A stretch of 58,933 bases of DNA, filler included. It is 7 parts of 7 records of this genome, joined end to end, with 100 filler letters (N's around TTAATTAATTAA, not from the genome) between each part and the next. Parts side by side here need not be neighbours in the genome. Positions count along the whole stretch, not along the records: positions 41,228 to 47,907 come from SRR31156797_49679; 6 more parts are not named here. The stretch is one strand, 5' to 3'. The position numbers and the translations under genes were made by a program. The notes under the pieces are model-generated. The model was not told the DNA's origin. It saw only the letters and a list, made by a program, of their open reading frames with translations, and searched no databases. Positions within the stretch are counted from its first letter, which is position 1. Every line of letters begins with the position of its first letter. Shown one piece after another: positions 8,020 through 48,007 of the stretch.

Positions 8020-8119
8020 NNNNNNNNNNNNNNNNNNNNNNNNNNNNNNNNNNNNNNNNNNNNTTAATTAATTAANNNNNNNNNNNNNNNNNNNNNNNNN
8101 NNNNNNNNNNNNNNNNNNN
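8020..8119. other. Artificial contig spacer
   Basis: N44-TTAATTAATTAA-N44, giving stops in all six frames. Confidence 0.98.
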
Positions 8120-20412: not shown

Positions 20413-20512
20413 NNNNNNNNNNNNNNNNNNNNNNNNNNNNNNNNNNNNNNNNNNNNTTAATTAATTAANNNNNNNNNNNNNNNNNNNNNNNNNNNNNNNN
20501 NNNNNNNNNNNN
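20413..20512. other. Artificial contig spacer
   Basis: N44-TTAATTAATTAA-N44. Confidence 0.98.
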
Positions 20513-26011: not shown

Positions 26012-26111
26012 NNNNNNNNNNNNNNNNNNNNNNNNNNNNNNNNNNNNNNNNNNNNTTAATTAATTAANNNNNNNNNNNNNNNNNNNNNNNNNNNNNNNNN
26101 NNNNNNNNNNN
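26012..26111. other. Artificial contig spacer
   Basis: N44-TTAATTAATTAA-N44. Confidence 0.98.
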
Positions 26112-33131: not shown

Positions 33132-33231
33132 NNNNNNNNNNNNNNNNNNNNNNNNNNNNNNNNNNNNNNNNNNNNTTAATTAATTAANNNNNNNNNNNNN
33201 NNNNNNNNNNNNNNNNNNNNNNNNNNNNNNN
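33132..33231. other. Artificial contig spacer
   Basis: N44-TTAATTAATTAA-N44. Confidence 0.98.
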
Positions 33232-41127: not shown

Positions 41128-41227
41128 NNNNNNNNNNNNNNNNNNNNNNNNNNNNNNNNNNNNNNNNNNNNTTAATTAATTAANNNNNNNNNNNNNNNNN
41201 NNNNNNNNNNNNNNNNNNNNNNNNNNN
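41128..41227. other. Artificial contig spacer
   Basis: N44-TTAATTAATTAA-N44. Confidence 0.98.
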
Positions 41228-41228
41228 A

Positions 41229-42224
41229 TTAAAAAGGCTTAAGTCAAACAATCCACTAAACCTGGTTTTGGTGCCGATAGCTGCAGTGCTATTTTGGCTT
41301 AAAAGTCTTATGCAGCCTTTTACATATGATTTTTATCCCGGAGAAACCGATAACGTTCTGTTTGCTCCGGTTTATGGTTTATTGGGAAGTAGTCCGTTGG
41401 TGCAGGTAATTTCCAGTGTTTTTTTAGTTGTAGCACTTTCTTTAATAATACAACTGGTAAACGACAGGTATTTGTTTATCCGCATTAAAAGCAAGTTGCC
41501 ATCTATATTGTTTGTAATTATTGTAGGAGGGTTTACAAAATTACACACCTTGCATCCGGTTTATTTTGGTGTTATTTTTCTTCTTTTTGCGCTATTTCGT
41601 CTTTTCACCACTTTCGAAAAAAAGAAAGCTTATTCAGCCATTTTCGATTCCGGTTTTTTACTTGGCGTGGGTGCTCTTTTTTACCTGAATCTCTTGGTGT
41701 TTGTACCTGCATTTCTTATAAGTGTTGTTATACTAAGCCGGGAAACACGTTGGCGTGAATTTGTAATCTTATTAATCGGTTTTATTTTGCCTCTTGGTTT
41801 TGCTCTTTCGTATGCAACACTAACCGGACAATTTTTGGAGACACTGGATATTTTTCGTCAAAACATAGTTCCTCCGGTTAATCACTTTTACGAAAATTTA
41901 CCACTTCACGGCTATTTGGCATTTTTAATTTTATTTACAGTGGTGGGTAGCATTACAATGTTTCAGCAATATGATACTAAAAAGATCAGTTCGCGAAAAT
42001 ATTTCTCCGTCTTTTTCTGGATCTTTATTTTTTCATTGATCAGCTTCTCTTTTATACCGGTATCATCTCAGGAAATGTTAGTTATCACTGCAATTCCGGT
42101 AACCTATCTGATAGCAAACCTTCTGGTGTTTATGCGAAGTCGTTTCTGGAGCGAGTTGCTTTTTATTCTTTTACTTGGCTTTGCTATTTTAATGCAGTTT
42201 ACGCAAGAATTATTTAATGCATAG
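41229..42224 (+). CDS. Polytopic membrane protein (DUF6427-like), 5'-truncated
   Basis: Frame open from the contig edge; many TM helices; IFDSGFLLGVGALFY. Confidence 0.65.
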   Translation, partial: LKRLKSNNPLNLVLVPIAAVLFWLKSLMQPFTYDFYPGETDNVLFAPVYGLLGSSPLVQVISSVFLVVALSLIIQLVNDRYLFIRIKSKLPSILFVIIVGGFTKLHTLHPVYFGVIFLLFALFRLFTTFEKKKAYSAIFDSGFLLGVGALFYLNLLVFVPAFLISVVILSRETRWREFVILLIGFILPLGFALSYATLTGQFLETLDIFRQNIVPPVNHFYENLPLHGYLAFLILFTVVGSITMFQQYDTKKISSRKYFSVFFWIFIFSLISFSFIPVSSQEMLVITAIPVTYLIANLLVFMRSRFWSELLFILLLGFAILMQFTQELFNA

Positions 42225-43866
42225 CAACAAACCAACACTGGCTATATACGGTATTCAGGATCGTTACAATTATGATCATCCTTTTTATGTGCACGATCAT
42301 AACCTGGCGTTGATGCAGGAAGGCAGGGTGAAATATTTTTTACAACAGGAACGAACATCGCGTAGAAAGCGTGATAATACATTGCATCTTCATCTAAAAG
42401 AGATTTTGAAAGAAAAAAAATTACTTGGTACTGATTATGATCTTGTATTTGTTGACAATGTAGTGGGACGTACTTTTTTGCAATACAATGGCGAAGTACG
42501 TTTTGAGGCACCTTTAAACCATAAATTATCAGTTGGGCCGGAAAAAGGTAAGTGTTGGTGGTTTGGAGAGGAAAAAGAGGCCTATGCGCTAAATCATGAG
42601 TTGGCACACATGTTTTCCTGTTTACCCTTTTGGGGTGACTTAAAAGAAAATAGTTTATTGGTTCATTTTGATGGTGGAGCAAGCCTAAGTAATTTTTCGG
42701 CTGCCCTTTATAAGGATAAAGCGTTGGAATGGCTTGAATATCACTGGGATTTAAAACCTTATTCGAGCATTTTTAATGCAAATGCCCTCGTGTTTGCTAT
42801 ACTTGGAGCAAAACTTCCTGAGCAGAATGCTGTTCCGGGCAAGTTTATGGGATTTGCAGGACTTGGAACTTATCGCAGCGATTTGGAGGAGTGGCTAACG
42901 AAAAATAACTTTTTTCAGGATATTTGGGGGAAAACCTCACTGTTTTTAAAAGCTGCAGAAACAGACTTTGGAGTAAAAACGGGTTCCTTCAATCAGAAGG
43001 ATAAATTTATTCAGGATGTTGCTGCTACTTTACAAGAAATCTTTATAAGTAAGATATTACAGAAATTAAAAAGGCTTCAACATAAAACCGGGACTGAAAA
43101 TCTTTATTACACAGGAGGTTCTGCCTTAAATATTGTGGCGAATACCCGTATTGTTGACAGCAAAATATTTAAAAATGTATTTATTCCTCCTTGCACCGAA
43201 GATTCGGGTTTAGCACTTGGTGCCGCTGCTTTTGTAGAGTGGAAAAAGCACGGAAAGGTAAAAGCACATTCGGCCTATCTAAATAACTGGGGGATTGAGA
43301 AGTATGTATGTAGCTATTCTGATAAAACGATTACAGAAGTGGCGCAACAATTGGTAGATAAGAAGTTGATTGGATTGTGTAGTAATTACGGGGAAGCCGG
43401 GCCCAGGGCACTGGGAAACAGAAGTATTTTAAGTATTGCATCCTCAAAACAGCTGGCTGAAATTCTAAGTATGGAAAAAAAAGGCCGGGAATGGTATCGC
43501 CCGCTTGCTCCCATTGCTTTGGCAAAAAATGTAAAACATTTTACAGGTTTACACCATATTCATCACCTTGCAAAATTTATGTTGCTCGATTTTAAGGTGC
43601 AAAATATACATCAAAAAGAGATTGCAGGAGCAATTCATGCCGATGGAACAGCTCGTTTCCAAACTATTTTTTCGCGCGATGAGAATCCTTTTGTTTTTGA
43701 TTTGCTTACCTGTTTAGACGAAAAGTTTGGGATAAAAGCTTTGATAAATACTTCTTTTAATTCGGGAGGAGAGCCCATTGTTCATACAGAGGAAGATGCC
43801 GTTTGTGCTGCTAAATCTATGAAACTTGATGCGGTAGTTTTAAATGGCAAGTTAATAAAGCTTTAA
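42217..43866 (+). CDS. Carbamoyltransferase (NodU/CmcH/TobZ family)
   Basis: QERTSRRK, HELAH, DGG, GKFMG, GGSALN, EDSG, EAGPRALGNRSIL, REWYRPLAP, HADGTARFQT and NTSFN..GEPIV. Confidence 0.92.
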   Translation: MHSNKPTLAIYGIQDRYNYDHPFYVHDHNLALMQEGRVKYFLQQERTSRRKRDNTLHLHLKEILKEKKLLGTDYDLVFVDNVVGRTFLQYNGEVRFEAPLNHKLSVGPEKGKCWWFGEEKEAYALNHELAHMFSCLPFWGDLKENSLLVHFDGGASLSNFSAALYKDKALEWLEYHWDLKPYSSIFNANALVFAILGAKLPEQNAVPGKFMGFAGLGTYRSDLEEWLTKNNFFQDIWGKTSLFLKAAETDFGVKTGSFNQKDKFIQDVAATLQEIFISKILQKLKRLQHKTGTENLYYTGGSALNIVANTRIVDSKIFKNVFIPPCTEDSGLALGAAAFVEWKKHGKVKAHSAYLNNWGIEKYVCSYSDKTITEVAQQLVDKKLIGLCSNYGEAGPRALGNRSILSIASSKQLAEILSMEKKGREWYRPLAPIALAKNVKHFTGLHHIHHLAKFMLLDFKVQNIHQKEIAGAIHADGTARFQTIFSRDENPFVFDLLTCLDEKFGIKALINTSFNSGGEPIVHTEEDAVCAAKSMKLDAVVLNGKLIKL

Positions 43867-43867
43867 C

Positions 43868-43875
43868 TATTTTTG
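43868..43875 (+). promoter_or_regulatory. Bacteroidota -7 promoter element for tsaB
   Basis: TATTTTTG matches TAnnTTTG, 24 nt upstream of the tsaB ATG. Confidence 0.55.
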
Positions 43876-43899
43876 CGGAAGATTGTTTAAAGGTATCAA

Positions 43900-44607
43900 A
43901 TGGCTAAAATATTAAATATAGAAACTTCAACCGAAGTGTGTTCAGTGTCGTTGGCAGAGAATGGAAAAACACTTTTTATAAAGGAAAGTACTGAAGGACT
44001 AAATCATTCCGAACTGCTTACCGTATTTATTCAGGATCTTTTTCAAGAGAATAAGATAGACTTAAGTAGTATTGATGCTGTAGCTGTTAGTAAAGGGCCA
44101 GGTTCATACACCGGATTACGAATAGGTGTTTCGGTAGCCAAAGGACTGTGTTATGGCTTAAATAAACCATTAATTGGCGTTGGATCGATTGAAGCTATGG
44201 GAAATTATGTAGCAGGCAATACCACAGAATTTTATAGGATAGAAGACAATTTACTGTTCTGCCCAATGATTGATGCCCGTAGAATGGAAGTTTATACTGC
44301 ACTTTATGATATGGCCGGAAAAGAACTTGTTCCGGTTACTGCTGAAATTATTGACGAGAATTCTTTTGATGCTCATCTTCAACAAAGTAAGATACTGTTT
44401 TTTGGAAACGGAGCAGAAAAATGCAAGGAAAAAATAATTCACACAAATGCCTTGTTTGTTGGACCACCAAAAACCTCGGCACGATTTATGCAAAATCTTG
44501 CAGAAAGTAAGTACAACAAAAAACAGTTTGAGGACGTTGCATATTTCGAACCTTTTTATTTGAAAGATTTTGTGGCAACAATTCCGAAAAACAAGGTGTT
44601 AAAATGA
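43900..44607 (+). CDS. tsaB: t6A biosynthesis protein TsaB
   Basis: IETSTEVCSV, HSE, GPGSYTGLRIG, IDARRMEVY and EPFYLK. Confidence 0.96.
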   Translation: MAKILNIETSTEVCSVSLAENGKTLFIKESTEGLNHSELLTVFIQDLFQENKIDLSSIDAVAVSKGPGSYTGLRIGVSVAKGLCYGLNKPLIGVGSIEAMGNYVAGNTTEFYRIEDNLLFCPMIDARRMEVYTALYDMAGKELVPVTAEIIDENSFDAHLQQSKILFFGNGAEKCKEKIIHTNALFVGPPKTSARFMQNLAESKYNKKQFEDVAYFEPFYLKDFVATIPKNKVLK

Positions 44608-44684
44608 ATTGAGCATGATTATAAGAATATCTTCTGAAATTAGCTGAGATAAATCTGAAGCCATATAAAAACAATAGTAATACA

Positions 44685-45419
44685 ATGAGACGAATAATTC
44701 CCATACTCCTGATCTTGTTACTGTCGATAAATCTACTGTCGGCAAAAGAAGTAAAACTAAAGCTACACCTTAAGTTTGGTTTTGTAAAAGGTGGAGAAGC
44801 TGAAATGACCATTTACGACACTGTTTTTAACGGACAACCGGCACTACATTATCATGTAATGGGCAGAACTACCGGTTTGGCCAATAAACTTTACGGCGTT
44901 TACGATATCTACGAAACAACGGTCGACGCCAATTCGAGGTTGCCGGTAAAAACTATTCGAAACGTTAAAGAGGGGAGTTACCGACGATATACAGAAACTT
45001 TGTTTTATCACGATATTGACTCGATTAATAGTTCGCGTAGTGGTTGGAGAGAGGTTCCGGATAACCTGCTCGATATTATATCGGTCTTCTTTTATTTTGT
45101 GGAAAAGAATCCATTCGACAATCTTCAGCCGGGCGATGCGGTTGTGTATCCAACAATAAATGCCGATAAGATATCTGATGTTTCGGTACGTTACCTGCGC
45201 GATGAGACCATTAAAACCAGCCTTGGGAAAGTGGAGTGCCATGTGTTGGTTCCTACAGTGCGTAAGGGAAAGGTGTTGCAAAAATCGGATGGGGTTAGGT
45301 TTTACCTTTCAAAAGAACATAAGGTACCGGTGTATATCGAGTTTGATATGCGCGTTGGTGCATTAAAAGCAGTTATAAAAGAGTTTAGTGTTGCCGGTGA
45401 GCGGAAGAAATTCAATTAA
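44685..45419 (+). CDS. DUF3108-like exported protein
   Basis: Signal peptide; FGFVKGGEA, G.TTG...KLYGVYD, RNVKEGSY and VPVYIEFDMRVG. Confidence 0.7.
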   Translation: MRRIIPILLILLLSINLLSAKEVKLKLHLKFGFVKGGEAEMTIYDTVFNGQPALHYHVMGRTTGLANKLYGVYDIYETTVDANSRLPVKTIRNVKEGSYRRYTETLFYHDIDSINSSRSGWREVPDNLLDIISVFFYFVEKNPFDNLQPGDAVVYPTINADKISDVSVRYLRDETIKTSLGKVECHVLVPTVRKGKVLQKSDGVRFYLSKEHKVPVYIEFDMRVGALKAVIKEFSVAGERKKFN

Positions 45420-45455
45420 AGAATTGGTTAAACTGGCAAAAGAGCCATGAAATGC

Positions 45456-45484
45456 TTGATTTTTAATGGATTTAATTATTTTTG
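45456..45484 (+). promoter_or_regulatory. Bacteroidota -33/-7 promoter for efp
   Basis: TTG at 45456 and TATTTTTG at 45477-45484. Confidence 0.6.
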
Positions 45485-45513
45485 CACCGGATAAAACAAG
45501 TAAAAGATTAGAC

Positions 45514-46083
45514 ATGGCTTCTACAGCAGATTTTAAAAACGGGATGTGTATAATATTCAAAGGTGATATTTATACGATTGTATCATTCCTTCATGTAAAA
45601 CCGGGTAAAGGTCCGGCTTTTGTACGTACCAAACTTAAAAATGTTAAAACCGGAAGGGTTGTCGAGAATACATTTAATTCAGGAGTAAAAGTTGACGAAG
45701 TTCGTGTTGAACGTCGTTCATATCAGTTTTTGTATCGCGATGATATGGGATTGAATGTGATGAATACGGAAACCTACGAACAGGTTTCAATTCCTGAAAC
45801 AATGGTTGAAAATGACGACCTGATGAAAGAAGGTCAGGTTATTGAAATTCAGTTTCATGCAGAGGAAGAATTACCTTTAACTGCAGAAATGCCGGACAAG
45901 GTTGAATTAACCATAACCTCCACTATTGAGGGAGAAAAAGGAAACACTGCCAGTTCAACAGCCTTAAAACCAGCTACGGTTGAAACAGGGGCAGAAATTA
46001 TGGTTCCAATGTTTATTAACGAAGGAGATATTATTCGTGTAAGTACTGCCGACCGTTCATACAGCGAACGCGTTAAGCAGTAG
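45514..46083 (+). CDS. efp: Elongation factor P
   Basis: True start MASTADFKNG at 45514; HVKPGKGPAFVR, KPATVETG and VPMFINEGD. Confidence 0.97.
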   Translation: MASTADFKNGMCIIFKGDIYTIVSFLHVKPGKGPAFVRTKLKNVKTGRVVENTFNSGVKVDEVRVERRSYQFLYRDDMGLNVMNTETYEQVSIPETMVENDDLMKEGQVIEIQFHAEEELPLTAEMPDKVELTITSTIEGEKGNTASSTALKPATVETGAEIMVPMFINEGDIIRVSTADRSYSERVKQ

Positions 46084-46104
46084 ACAGACGTTAAAAGATA
46101 TTTC

Positions 46105-46138
46105 AGCCGGTTTGGGATTGTCTAAACCGGCTTTTTTT
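46105..46138 (+). terminator. Intrinsic terminator after efp
   Basis: AGCCGGTTT...AAACCGGCT followed by a T run. Confidence 0.85.
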
Positions 46139-46142
46139 ATTG

Positions 46143-46799
46143 TTATTTTTGAGGAAAAGTATATTTAAACACACCAAACACCGAAAGGTTGTGATCCTTA
46201 TCATCGCTTGAATAGGTGTCGGTACCTTCGGTATTTATATTTGTTAATCCGTATACTGCACGAACACCTAAACTAATGTTGTCGTTAAGCTTATAGCCTG
46301 CACCAACAGGAACTCCAAGATCAAATGTTTTAATGTAATCTTTAAAATCATAACTGTCGGCATCGTCAACTTTATCCTTGGCACTTAGCAAAAAAGATGG
46401 CTGGAGGCCCGCTTCAGCGTAAAATCCGGTGTTTCCCTGGTAGCGATAAAGTAAAGGGACGTTCAAATACGATAAGCTTATTTTTCCGGAATAAGCACTG
46501 CCATCCTGTGCACTTTTTAGTCCATATACGTAATAATCACTTATGGTTTCTTCGTAATTGGCGCCCTGAAACGAAACGTTAAGACCGAAAATAAGAGAGG
46601 AGATTCCAGGGCATTCAAGAACTTTTATTTCTGCTCCGGCAGCTGCTCCAACTGCAGGGTTGTAACTTTTTCCTCCATCAATATGTGTCATTCCGGCACT
46701 TGCAACAGCAGCTATCTCTTTTTGAGTAGCTAATTTCCACTGGCACTTACATGAGCCTAACAAAGATGTGATGATTAATAACAAGAAAAGATTTTTCAT
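46143..46799 (-). CDS. Outer-membrane beta-barrel (porin family/OMP_b-brl_2-like) protein
   Basis: Signal peptide; LSYLNVPLLYRY, FYAEAGLQPSFLLSAK and aromatic C-terminus FKYTF. Confidence 0.85.
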   Translation of the reverse strand: MKNLFLLLIITSLLGSCKCQWKLATQKEIAAVASAGMTHIDGGKSYNPAVGAAAGAEIKVLECPGISSLIFGLNVSFQGANYEETISDYYVYGLKSAQDGSAYSGKISLSYLNVPLLYRYQGNTGFYAEAGLQPSFLLSAKDKVDDADSYDFKDYIKTFDLGVPVGAGYKLNDNISLGVRAVYGLTNINTEGTDTYSSDDKDHNLSVFGVFKYTFPQK

Positions 46800-46851
46800 G
46801 ATAATTGACTTTTAGGTTAAACAAAAGATGGTTCAATTATCAATCAACGAT

Positions 46852-46859
46852 CAAATTTA
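46852..46859 (-). promoter_or_regulatory. Bacteroidota -7 promoter element for the 46143-46799 OMP gene
   Basis: Minus-strand TAAATTTG (TAnnTTTG) about 50 nt upstream of the ATG. Confidence 0.55.
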
Positions 46860-46944
46860 TCGTCCTGTTTTTCCAACGATTTTGTTTAGTTCTTACAGAT
46901 TCATACGGTGTTCTTATAAAAAAGATGCACTTGTTAGGAACAGG

Positions 46945-46973
46945 GCAACTCTGAGTATTGGTTTTACGTATAA
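46945..46973 (+). promoter_or_regulatory. ECF-sigma-type promoter for the candidate sRNA
   Basis: GCAAC (46945-46949)-N17-CGTATAA (46967-46973), matching the AAC-N16/17-CGT ECF consensus. Confidence 0.55.
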
Positions 46974-46976
46974 ACA

Positions 46977-47072
46977 AACACTACTCTAAGCAAAGGCGGG
47001 GTAGGCAGTTTTTTCATAGGACCTAGTTAGTTAGGTGAGTATCCCGGCACAGGAGGGCCGGGATACTTTTTT
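46977..47072 (+). ncRNA. Candidate trans-acting small RNA (~95 nt)
   Basis: Upstream ECF-like promoter; 5' hairpin; unpaired AGTTTTTTCATAGG (47007-47020); ACCTA/TAGGT hairpin; 11-bp terminator stem (47038-47067) plus a T run on the plus strand, opposite to both flanking genes. The 5' end is estimated. Confidence 0.6.
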
Positions 47073-47093
47073 ATGTTCTGTGGTAATAATACT

Positions 47094-47717
47094 CTAATTC
47101 CCGGTCTTTTTGTTAAAACTGTAACGAATCAATCCGGTTACAATAAAATTTTGGTGACTACCTTCGTTTGACACCCAATCCAGTCCATCGTTACTCATAT
47201 TGGTCAGTCCAAAAACTGCACGTGCTCCAATACTTAGCCGGTTCGAAAACCAATAGCCCAAACCTACGGGTATCCCGATGTTGACAAATTTTACATGCTT
47301 TTTAAAGTCTGAGTTTTCTCCGTTGTCCTGATCGTTTTGGGCATTAAGCATAAATCCGGTTTGAAATCCAGCTTCAAGAAATAAACCATTTGGATTTTGA
47401 TACCGATATAAAACAGGCATGTTGATGTAGGAAAACTTTAACGTTCCGGTTAGGATTTCATTATTTACTAAAACGCTGTAATCGGCGCCTTGCAGGGTGT
47501 AGTTTATTCCTACATTTAGCAAAGAGCTGCCGGTAAAATGATGAACGTTACTTTCCAGACCAACCATATAGCCGGTAGTGGTGCTTAAATTAATACCACT
47601 AAAAACATGGGTTAGCCCGGCTCCCCCAAACAGGCATAAGCCTTCGGTAGCCTTATTTTTTTGGCTCCACCCGGTAAACGACAATAAAACAAAAAGTAGA
47701 ATGTTTAGTTTTTTCAT
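47094..47717 (-). CDS. Outer-membrane beta-barrel (porin family) protein, paralogue of 46143-46799
   Basis: True start MKKLNILLF (ATG 47717); FSYINMPVLYRYQ, LFLEAGFQ, SIGARAVFGLTN and IRYSF. Confidence 0.85.
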   Translation of the reverse strand: MKKLNILLFVLLSFTGWSQKNKATEGLCLFGGAGLTHVFSGINLSTTTGYMVGLESNVHHFTGSSLLNVGINYTLQGADYSVLVNNEILTGTLKFSYINMPVLYRYQNPNGLFLEAGFQTGFMLNAQNDQDNGENSDFKKHVKFVNIGIPVGLGYWFSNRLSIGARAVFGLTNMSNDGLDWVSNEGSHQNFIVTGLIRYSFNKKTGN

Positions 47718-47907
47718 AGGTACAACAGTTGGTGTTATCCTTTCTATTAACAGGAAATAATACCAGCTAAAGGTACAAGAATGATTTGAAAAATTATTTT
47801 GATGGTGAAAGTTTATCCGAATATAGTATTGTTCTGAGTAAACTGTGTCTATGCTAGGGATCAGTTTAGATATCAAGGGGAGTATAATCTTTTGTATCGA
47901 TTTGTTT

Positions 47908-48007
47908 NNNNNNNNNNNNNNNNNNNNNNNNNNNNNNNNNNNNNNNNNNNNTTAATTAATTAANNNNNNNNNNNNNNNNNNNNNNNNNNNNNNNNNNNNN
48001 NNNNNNN
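47908..48007. other. Artificial contig spacer
   Basis: N44-TTAATTAATTAA-N44. Confidence 0.98.

Follow-up and report, generated by a model that had tools for sequence, protein, structure and literature searches.

The DNA analysed here, called the window, is a stretch of 58,933 nucleotides (nt). One of its metagenome contigs carries on the plus strand a compact unit at positions 46945-47074, which lies between two minus-strand genes for beta-barrel outer-membrane proteins (OMPs), OMP1 and OMP2. This unit is probably a gene in its own right, encoding a small RNA (sRNA) of ~95 nt that acts in trans by base-pairing. The RNA would be transcribed from a promoter of the extracytoplasmic function (ECF) type and would mask the translation starts of mRNAs that open with the codons Met-Lys-Lys (MKK). 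The RNA belongs to a set of loci with the same layout in Draconibacterium, and its promoter boxes and seed are invariant among the members aligned.

In the proposed mechanism, transcription would begin at the ECF-sigma-type promoter AAC-N17-CGTATAA and would be ended by the intrinsic terminator of the RNA itself. The transcript is expected to expose a single-stranded seed that has the 5' hairpin on one side and a small central hairpin on the other. The seed core UUUUUUCAUAG is the exact complement of CUAUGAAAAAA, that is, of a start codon followed by two Lys codons, and would pair with this sequence at the starts typical of exported and outer-membrane proteins in the group. By covering the start codon, the duplex would deny the 30S subunit access to the mRNA and thereby repress translation, comparable to the experimentally demonstrated action of FopS-10 on susC mRNA in Bacteroides thetaiotaomicron. 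The best visible target here would be the adjacent OMP2 mRNA, paired over 14 nt from -3 to +11, and family members in the related genome G001 would reach the starts of SusC-type transporters over 16-17 nt. The signal that induces the RNA is presumably a stress signal.

Anatomy and conservation of the predicted RNA

The predicted transcript (Table 1) follows a GCAAC element and a CGTATAA box separated by a spacer of 17 nt. Its 5' end is placed by promoter geometry (+/- 3 nt), and its 3' end falls within the T run. The segment folds into three hairpins with a minimum free energy (MFE) of -35.5 kcal/mol, and none of 200 shuffled sequences was as stable. A T run follows the terminator stem on the plus strand only, with none on the minus strand, and a reading of the sense strand of the predicted sRNA finds no ATG before the T run. 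A search of Rfam 15 over 46977-47074 returned no family at E <= 10. The original prediction had described a plus-strand unit between two minus-strand beta-barrel genes, and this is borne out with all of its coordinates, both flanking genes belonging to PF13568. Its hairpins, unpaired stretch and plus-oriented terminator were likewise recovered, the terminator with a stem of 12 bp (47037-47068).

A total of 22 loci, with the window counted, have the layout of the window and are termed class A: the promoter AAC-N16/17-CGTATA(A/C), then a hairpin at the 5' end, UUUUUUCAUAG as an unpaired segment, and a small hairpin ahead of the terminator. The class A loci that are named, 14 in number, all bear the title Draconibacterium. 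Genome searches were centred on a Draconibacterium metagenome-assembled genome (MAG) that was reached through the OMP2 protein. When the 294-nt spacer was compared by BLAST with 301 genomes from the same family as this MAG, 54 of them matched at E <= 0.01. Among these, 38 cover the seed region (query 191-280; own count of the listing), and six of the 38 span the whole RNA from the promoter-proximal hairpin to the terminator. The remaining 16, matched over other short parts, are taken as noise.

A covariance model built from class A, named R1, finds 13 members in the loci searched; the copies that it added include two in the Draconibacterium MAG itself. In the alignment of the 13 sequences, which is fitted to model R1 and thus favours the structure, 92.2% of the pair cells hold standard pairs and changes on both sides occur in 11 of 24 pairs. 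None of 500 shuffles reaches the observed values, and slid controls are 37-49% paired. The terminator helix (helix 5) is 94% paired, with both-side changes in 5 of 13 pairs. An independent treatment of nine sequences with MAFFT and RNAalifold gives the same three hairpins and 8/24 compensatory pairs. The seed core and the promoter boxes are invariant in 13/13 members.

The distribution was also surveyed by a pattern scan (CGTATAA, gap, TTTTTTCATAG, gap, TTAGG) of one genome per species, covering 185,579 species. It gave 45 stretches, of which model R1 confirms 14 at E <= 0.01 and none of the other 31. The confirmed stretches belong to Draconibacterium orientale, D. aestuarii (2), D. mangrovi (2), D. 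sediminis, Draconibacterium sp. IB214405, and MAGs, and the cultured strain D. orientale DSM 25947 is among the carriers of a class A gene (L105). Pattern matches in Flavobacterium, Pelagibacteraceae, and other groups lack a terminator or lie antisense inside coding regions; none reaches E <= 0.01 with model R1, and they were set aside as chance. Two class A copies are present in each of G001, G041, D. aestuarii, and D. mangrovi. The sRNA gene keeps its synteny with the DUF3108 and efp genes, as in the window, in six relatives (L010-L015). The DUF3108-efp pair stands directly 5' of the sRNA in L011-L015, and in L010, the closest relative, an OMP_b-brl_2 gene lies between efp and the sRNA, as in the window.

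The unit at 46945-47074 is a conserved predicted RNA gene and not a chance arrangement, and it appears to represent a new covarying family which is restricted, as far as seen, to Draconibacterium. The claim of a self-contained plus-strand RNA gene gains support from the conserved promoter motif, seed, and terminator, together with the covarying stems. The Rfam and covariance search that the original prediction had proposed found the promoter, seed, and terminator conserved in relatives, and no Rfam family.

Candidate targets, promoter class, and competing explanations

The 58.9-kb window contains exactly two copies of the 14-mer AGTTTTTTCATAGG, which lie on the plus strand at 47007 and 47707. 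The recurrence of the 14-mer and its perfect complementarity to the OMP2 start had been claimed before, and both were confirmed. The 8-nt match claimed at the start of the paralogue (46799) is present as well, as TTTTTCAT at 46792 over the start of the OMP1 gene; only these 8 nt are complementary to the seed, and the energy gained on cofolding (ddG) is -5.5, which is at background level. Among the starts of 73 open reading frames (ORFs) in the window, most of them controls from other organisms, the OMP2 start ranks first as duplex partner of the unpaired stretch, at -19.9 kcal/mol. The cofold ddG with the OMP2 leader is -13.2 kcal/mol, compared with -5.7 +/- 2.6 for 200 shuffled leaders. The candidate match of the seed with OMP2 is more than chance.

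In the complete genome G001 (6 Mb), CTATGAAAAAA has 35 occurrences against 21 for its reversed control. Thirty of these sites were examined, and an ORF of at least 60 amino acids (aa) begins at 17 of them. Six of these 17 ORFs have CarbopepD_reg_2 plus Plug domains (SusC-type) and one has a weak OMP_b-brl match, in a genome with 86 CarbopepD_reg_2 matches. The class A RNA L034 of the same genome has contiguous complementarity of 17 and 16 nt to two SusC starts. Among the 13 sites that begin no such ORF, four (L077, L082, L066, and L087) are themselves RNA genes of this type or resemble them. At L072 (G001:C1:1317408), the CTATGAAAAAA start opens an ORF of only 20 aa, and a CarbopepD_reg_2 domain follows ~520 nt downstream in the same orientation; this could reflect an upstream ORF, a frameshift, or a SusC/STN gene whose start is wrongly placed.

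Several results on the targets weigh against start-codon masking by this RNA. One of the 200 shuffled OMP2 leaders cofolds better than the real one (-15.7 vs -13.2 kcal/mol), the 73 start regions used as duplex controls come mostly from unrelated contigs, and the SusC share of 6/17 in G001 lacks a proper background of all MKK-start genes. In addition, nearby ORF starts at the 21 other class A loci are complementary over at most 9 nt, no more than the generic ATGAAAAAA. The claim that the seed is antisense to a neighbouring OMP start therefore stands for the window and falls as a trait of the family. Because the match to the OMP2 neighbour is found in the window only, the RNA is read as probably trans-acting, and OMP2 may stand beside it by coincidence or as a peculiarity of this lineage.

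In B. subtilis, ECF-class promoters are defined by a CGT(A/C) -10 box together with a tgaAAC -35 element (PMC5758882), and in Flavobacterium psychrophilum a -10 CGT box is interpreted as a sigma-ECF element (PMC9723704). All 13 aligned members, the window among them, have AAC at -35, then a spacer of 16-17 nt, and CGTA at -10. The promoter of the window RNA lacks TAnnTTTG, the housekeeping motif of Bacteroidota, which is present in class B, a group of sister elements described below. The promoter thus appears to be of the ECF-sigma type. Within a limited literature search that did not extend to supplements, no report of an ECF-driven sRNA in Bacteroidota was found. An AAC-N17-CGTATAA motif was also seen by eye at L054 (G001:C1:2702283 region), ~60 nt upstream of the apparent 5' end of a transfer-messenger RNA, which has a TAnnTTTG box of its own.

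One alternative concerns the sigma factor: in an sRNA with the same seed mechanism, the motif could be the site of another regulator or an unusual housekeeping promoter, with no link to envelope stress. No cognate sigma factor was found. Across the G001 genome the AAC-N16/17-CGTATAA motif shows no enrichment (23 matches vs 60 for the reversed control), and no ECF sigma gene stands directly behind the copies of the motif in that genome. The sole class A locus with an ECF-type sigma gene nearby is copy L030, at ~840 nt, and the upstream region of this sigma gene is without the motif. Moreover, the related GibS uses another non-canonical promoter, PM2 (PMC7366714). On the other hand, the combination of AAC, spacer, and CGTA box is the ECF-class signature of the two studies named above, and it is invariant in all 13 members, with the housekeeping motif absent here and present in class B. 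This alternative is considered unlikely, though it retains some weight. A protein-centred explanation is improbable to a greater degree. It holds that the RNA is real and mainly binds or titrates a protein, such as a homologue of the RRM-type RbpB, with the invariant U-rich box as the protein site. RbpB binds the 5' portion of both FopS and GibS (PMC11697453), G001 encodes two RRM_1 proteins, and the strict conservation of 11 nt among diverged copies is explained equally well by common targets and by a common protein or ribosome-like ligand. However, the invariant box is exactly antisense to a start codon plus Lys codons, its variable flanks extend the complementarity to specific starts (14 nt here and 16-17 nt in G001), and protein binding and base-pairing coexist in the FopS system.

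The explanation with the least credit, which is very improbable, denies the RNA a regulatory role: the 14-mer would be the leftover of a duplicated gene start, and the hairpin a terminator region common to the convergent genes. The hairpin does stand 22 nt past the OMP2 stop codon, the minus strand of the spacer reads MKKLPTPPLLRVVFVYT*, and the G001 element L087 resembles the truncated 5' end of a SusC gene with a terminator behind it. However, 21 other loci keep the complete unit, promoter and terminator included, without an adjoining OMP2, the T run stands only on the plus-strand side of the stem, and the stems covary. A minus-strand mini-ORF (MKKLPTPPLLRVVFVYT*) was rejected as its length and sequence are not kept: it measures 17 aa in the window, against 12 and 36 aa with unrelated sequence in two relatives. 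A decayed third OMP paralogue was rejected on tblastn of OMP1 and OMP2 against the spacer, which gives a best E of 0.26 in the 294-nt search space. Since the mini-ORF is not kept, tblastn is null, the sense strand has no ATG, and the T run is confined to the plus strand, an RNA gene is the fitting reading. As an observation apart, L087 (G001:C1:3369408 region) has a truncated SusC-like 5' end, MKKIALFVSFH*, beside a terminator, and the start regions of three SusC genes match its antisense over 15-20 nt; sRNA genes of such a kind may arise from duplicated gene starts.

Sister elements and comparison with known small RNAs

Class B elements have the same seed, occur in the same bacterial family as the class A relatives, and carry a housekeeping -7 box, TAnnTTTG or cAnnTTTG. 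The box is followed by a short leader, GUUUUUUCAUAGGA, UUAGG repeats, and a terminator. They are often multicopy, with up to 3-4 copies per 3-kb locus. Tandem arrays of two to four genes were seen at L022:1444-2338 (-), L016:1315-1577 (+), L023, and L025, where each unit has a cAnnTTTG promoter with TTAAC-type repeats upstream, and behind it the seed, the UUAGG repeats, and the terminator. A gene of the creatininase family is oriented convergently to these arrays. Class A and class B have a stretch of 26-33 nt in common, at 88-96% identity. Class B matches the Rfam FopS model (RF04319) over its full length with 29.4-41.7 bits (E 0.0034-0.8), the gathering score being 56. In genome-wide searches of four genomes with RF04319, the two that bear class B give E 0.001 and 0.004, the two Draconibacterium genomes give no match, and the control gives matches in B. 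thetaiotaomicron only. The best GibS match (RF04182) in relatives has 27.7 bits, against a gathering score of 115, and lies on a class B element; the window has none.

Ruttiger et al. 2025 (PMC11697453) describe FopS as a family of 14 paralogous RNAs, each 65-70 nt long, which have a sigma-ABfr promoter, a single-stranded seed at the 5' end, and a terminator. They report that the predicted targets are enriched in OMPs, especially SusC, that FopS and GibS pair at SusC/OMP start codons and block translation, and that FopS-10 of B. thetaiotaomicron binds beside the start codon of susC and prevents translation in vitro, as compensatory mutations proved. FopS expression rises with bile salts, RbpB binds both RNAs as mentioned above, and conservation is reported within Bacteroidaceae (PMC11697453). 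GibS has the FopS seed and a different promoter, PM2, which is described as near-palindromic with -10 and -30 boxes (PMC7366714).

Class A may share with FopS the presence of several copies per genome, given the two copies in some of the relatives, and as in FopS the predicted targets start with MKK and appear enriched in outer-membrane and SusC proteins. In contrast to FopS, the window RNA has a promoter of apparent ECF type and not of sigma-ABfr type (TAnnTTTG at -7), and its predicted length is ~95 nt and not 65-70 nt. Its seed is internal, behind a 5' hairpin of 24 nt and with a further hairpin before the terminator, whereas the seed of FopS is at the 5' end. The seed reads CAUAG where that of FopS reads CAUGG, and the host is Draconibacterium (Prolixibacteraceae) rather than a member of Bacteroidaceae. 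GibS (RF04182; Ryan et al. 2020, PMC7366714) is comparable in that it combines the FopS seed R1 with a non-housekeeping promoter and extra structure, and it pairs across the start codons of its targets. The relation of GibS to FopS, with the same seed and a different promoter, parallels that of class A to class B. GibS is longer (142 positions in the Rfam model), has a second seed, R2, and uses PM2, whereas the window RNA has AAC/CGT.

The FopS and GibS models themselves speak against a direct assignment: neither matches the window RNA at E <= 10, the class A loci L010, L011, L019, and L028 at E <= 5, or the Draconibacterium genomes G001 and G294 at E <= 0.01. A weak FopS match at 46788-46874 (E 8.3) is antisense to the OMP1 start and was dismissed as insignificant. 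Class A is linked to FopS because of the 26-33-nt stretch in common with class B and the sub-threshold FopS scores of class B. Homology to FopS would therefore rest on a chain of short similarities, and convergence could also produce them. On present evidence, the window RNA would act like FopS and GibS, from which it departs in model score, promoter type, and the 5' position of the seed. Start-codon masking is already described in kind for FopS and GibS, and it plausibly operates here with an ECF-type promoter, an extra 5' hairpin, and in another order.

In enterobacteria, MicA and RybB are reportedly sigma-E-driven sRNAs that lower OMP synthesis by pairing near the 5' end of the mRNA. The same logic is reported for FoxI and FoxJ of Fusobacterium, where an ECF envelope-stress sigma acts through an sRNA to give fewer OMPs. 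These RNAs have no sequence or structure relation to the window RNA, dependence on Hfq does not apply to it, and the analogy is one of function only. The original inference of an sRNA directed at start codons thus keeps its conserved RNA gene, promoter motif, and unpaired seed; its model in MicA and RybB is reduced to an analogy, and RNAs of this kind were already known as FopS and GibS.

Genomic setting and significance

The window consists of seven unrelated metagenome contigs with a GC content of 0.28-0.58, joined by N44-TTAATTAATTAA-N44 linkers. The contig of the sRNA (41228-47907; 6,680 bp, 37.7% GC) is the sole part of the window from the sRNA organism. Pfam identifies tsaB-like, DUF3108, and efp genes upstream of the sRNA locus. 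OMP1 and OMP2 are 33% identical to each other. The OMP2 homologue in the Draconibacterium MAG is 72% identical and aligns over residues 1-207, which supports the ATG at 47717 as the OMP2 start. By eye, the region upstream of OMP2 at 47725-47800 (AAAGGTACAAGAATGATTTG) is conserved with the Draconibacterium homologue at L001:2920-2990, and a near-consensus -7 box, TACCTTTA, is visible on the minus strand upstream of OMP2. This box would give OMP2 a 5' untranslated region of ~50 nt, which would contain the candidate target site.

A gene for an exported protein of ~135 aa (MKT..KQ..), without a Pfam family, is conserved in several Draconibacterium loci. It is convergent to the sRNA or stands beside the OMP2 homologue (L010:1686-2096 (-), L014, L015, and L001:3888-4289). 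The OMP1 protein query of genome contigs found no relative, and the OMP2 protein query and the seed pattern scan of metagenomes returned nothing. An OMP2 orthologue was sought in G294, the closest sRNA-bearing genome, and only a neighbour OMP with 41% identity was found.

Table 1. Predicted elements of the sRNA locus and neighbouring features, in positions of the window
Feature	Position	Strand	Evidence or remark
-35 element GCAAC of the predicted ECF-type promoter	46945..46949	+	AAC 16-17 nt 5' of the CGT box in 13/13 aligned members
-10 element CGTATAA (CGT box)	46967..46973	+	CGTATA(A/C) in 13/13 members
Predicted sRNA, about 92-98 nt	46977..47074	+	fold z = -4.32; covariance model R1 88.2 bits, E 2e-15
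5' hairpin	46981..47004	+	helices 1+2 88% paired; both-side changes in 4/7 pairs
Unpaired seed region	47005..47020	+	single-stranded in MFE and consensus structures
Invariant seed core UUUUUUCAUAG (11-mer)	47009-47019	+	13/13 aligned members, also class B relatives
Small hairpin ACCUA/UAGGU	47021..47036	+	helices 3+4 92-96% paired; both-side changes in 2/4 pairs
Rho-independent terminator: 12-bp GC-rich stem (47037-47068), 8-nt loop, T run	47037..47074	+	terminator scan
Candidate target site CCUAUGAAAAAACU, OMP2 mRNA positions -3 to +11	47707..47720	-	perfect 14-nt complement of 47007-47020
OMP1, 218-aa OMP_b-brl_2 protein	46143..46799	-	divergent from the sRNA; PF13568 E 7.6e-18
OMP2, 207-aa OMP_b-brl_2 protein	47094..47717	-	convergent with the sRNA; PF13568 E 8.4e-14
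efp, syntenic anchor of the sRNA locus	45466..46083	+	Pfam EFP_N, EFP, Elong-fact-P_C
Likely -7 box of OMP1, TAAATTTG	46852-46859	-	read from sequence
Linkers	8020-8119, 20413-20512, 26012-26111, 33132-33231, 41128-41227, 47908-48007		adjacent stretches are not from one genome

To our knowledge, post-transcriptional control in Bacteroidota is known almost solely from gut Bacteroides, and the phylum is without Hfq and ProQ and mostly without Shine-Dalgarno sequences. Start-codon masking may therefore be the general form of RNA control in these bacteria. The present analysis places a FopS/GibS-like RNA in environmental Draconibacterium (Prolixibacteraceae), with one branch tied to an ECF-type promoter motif, and adds an alignable, covarying family (model R1) that is absent from Rfam. 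It is possible, if doubtful at present, that class A provides the first example in Bacteroidota of an sRNA under an ECF sigma factor that silences OMP and SusC mRNAs, with a conserved home beside efp in Draconibacterium, and that it is the counterpart in the phylum of sigma-E with MicA and RybB. In the same tentative view, class A together with the housekeeping-promoter class B would make FopS-type masking an old, phylum-wide mechanism that has been rewired to different sigma factors. If the ECF link is true, the RNA would provide a route from envelope stress to the synthesis of OMP and SusC proteins in the phylum.

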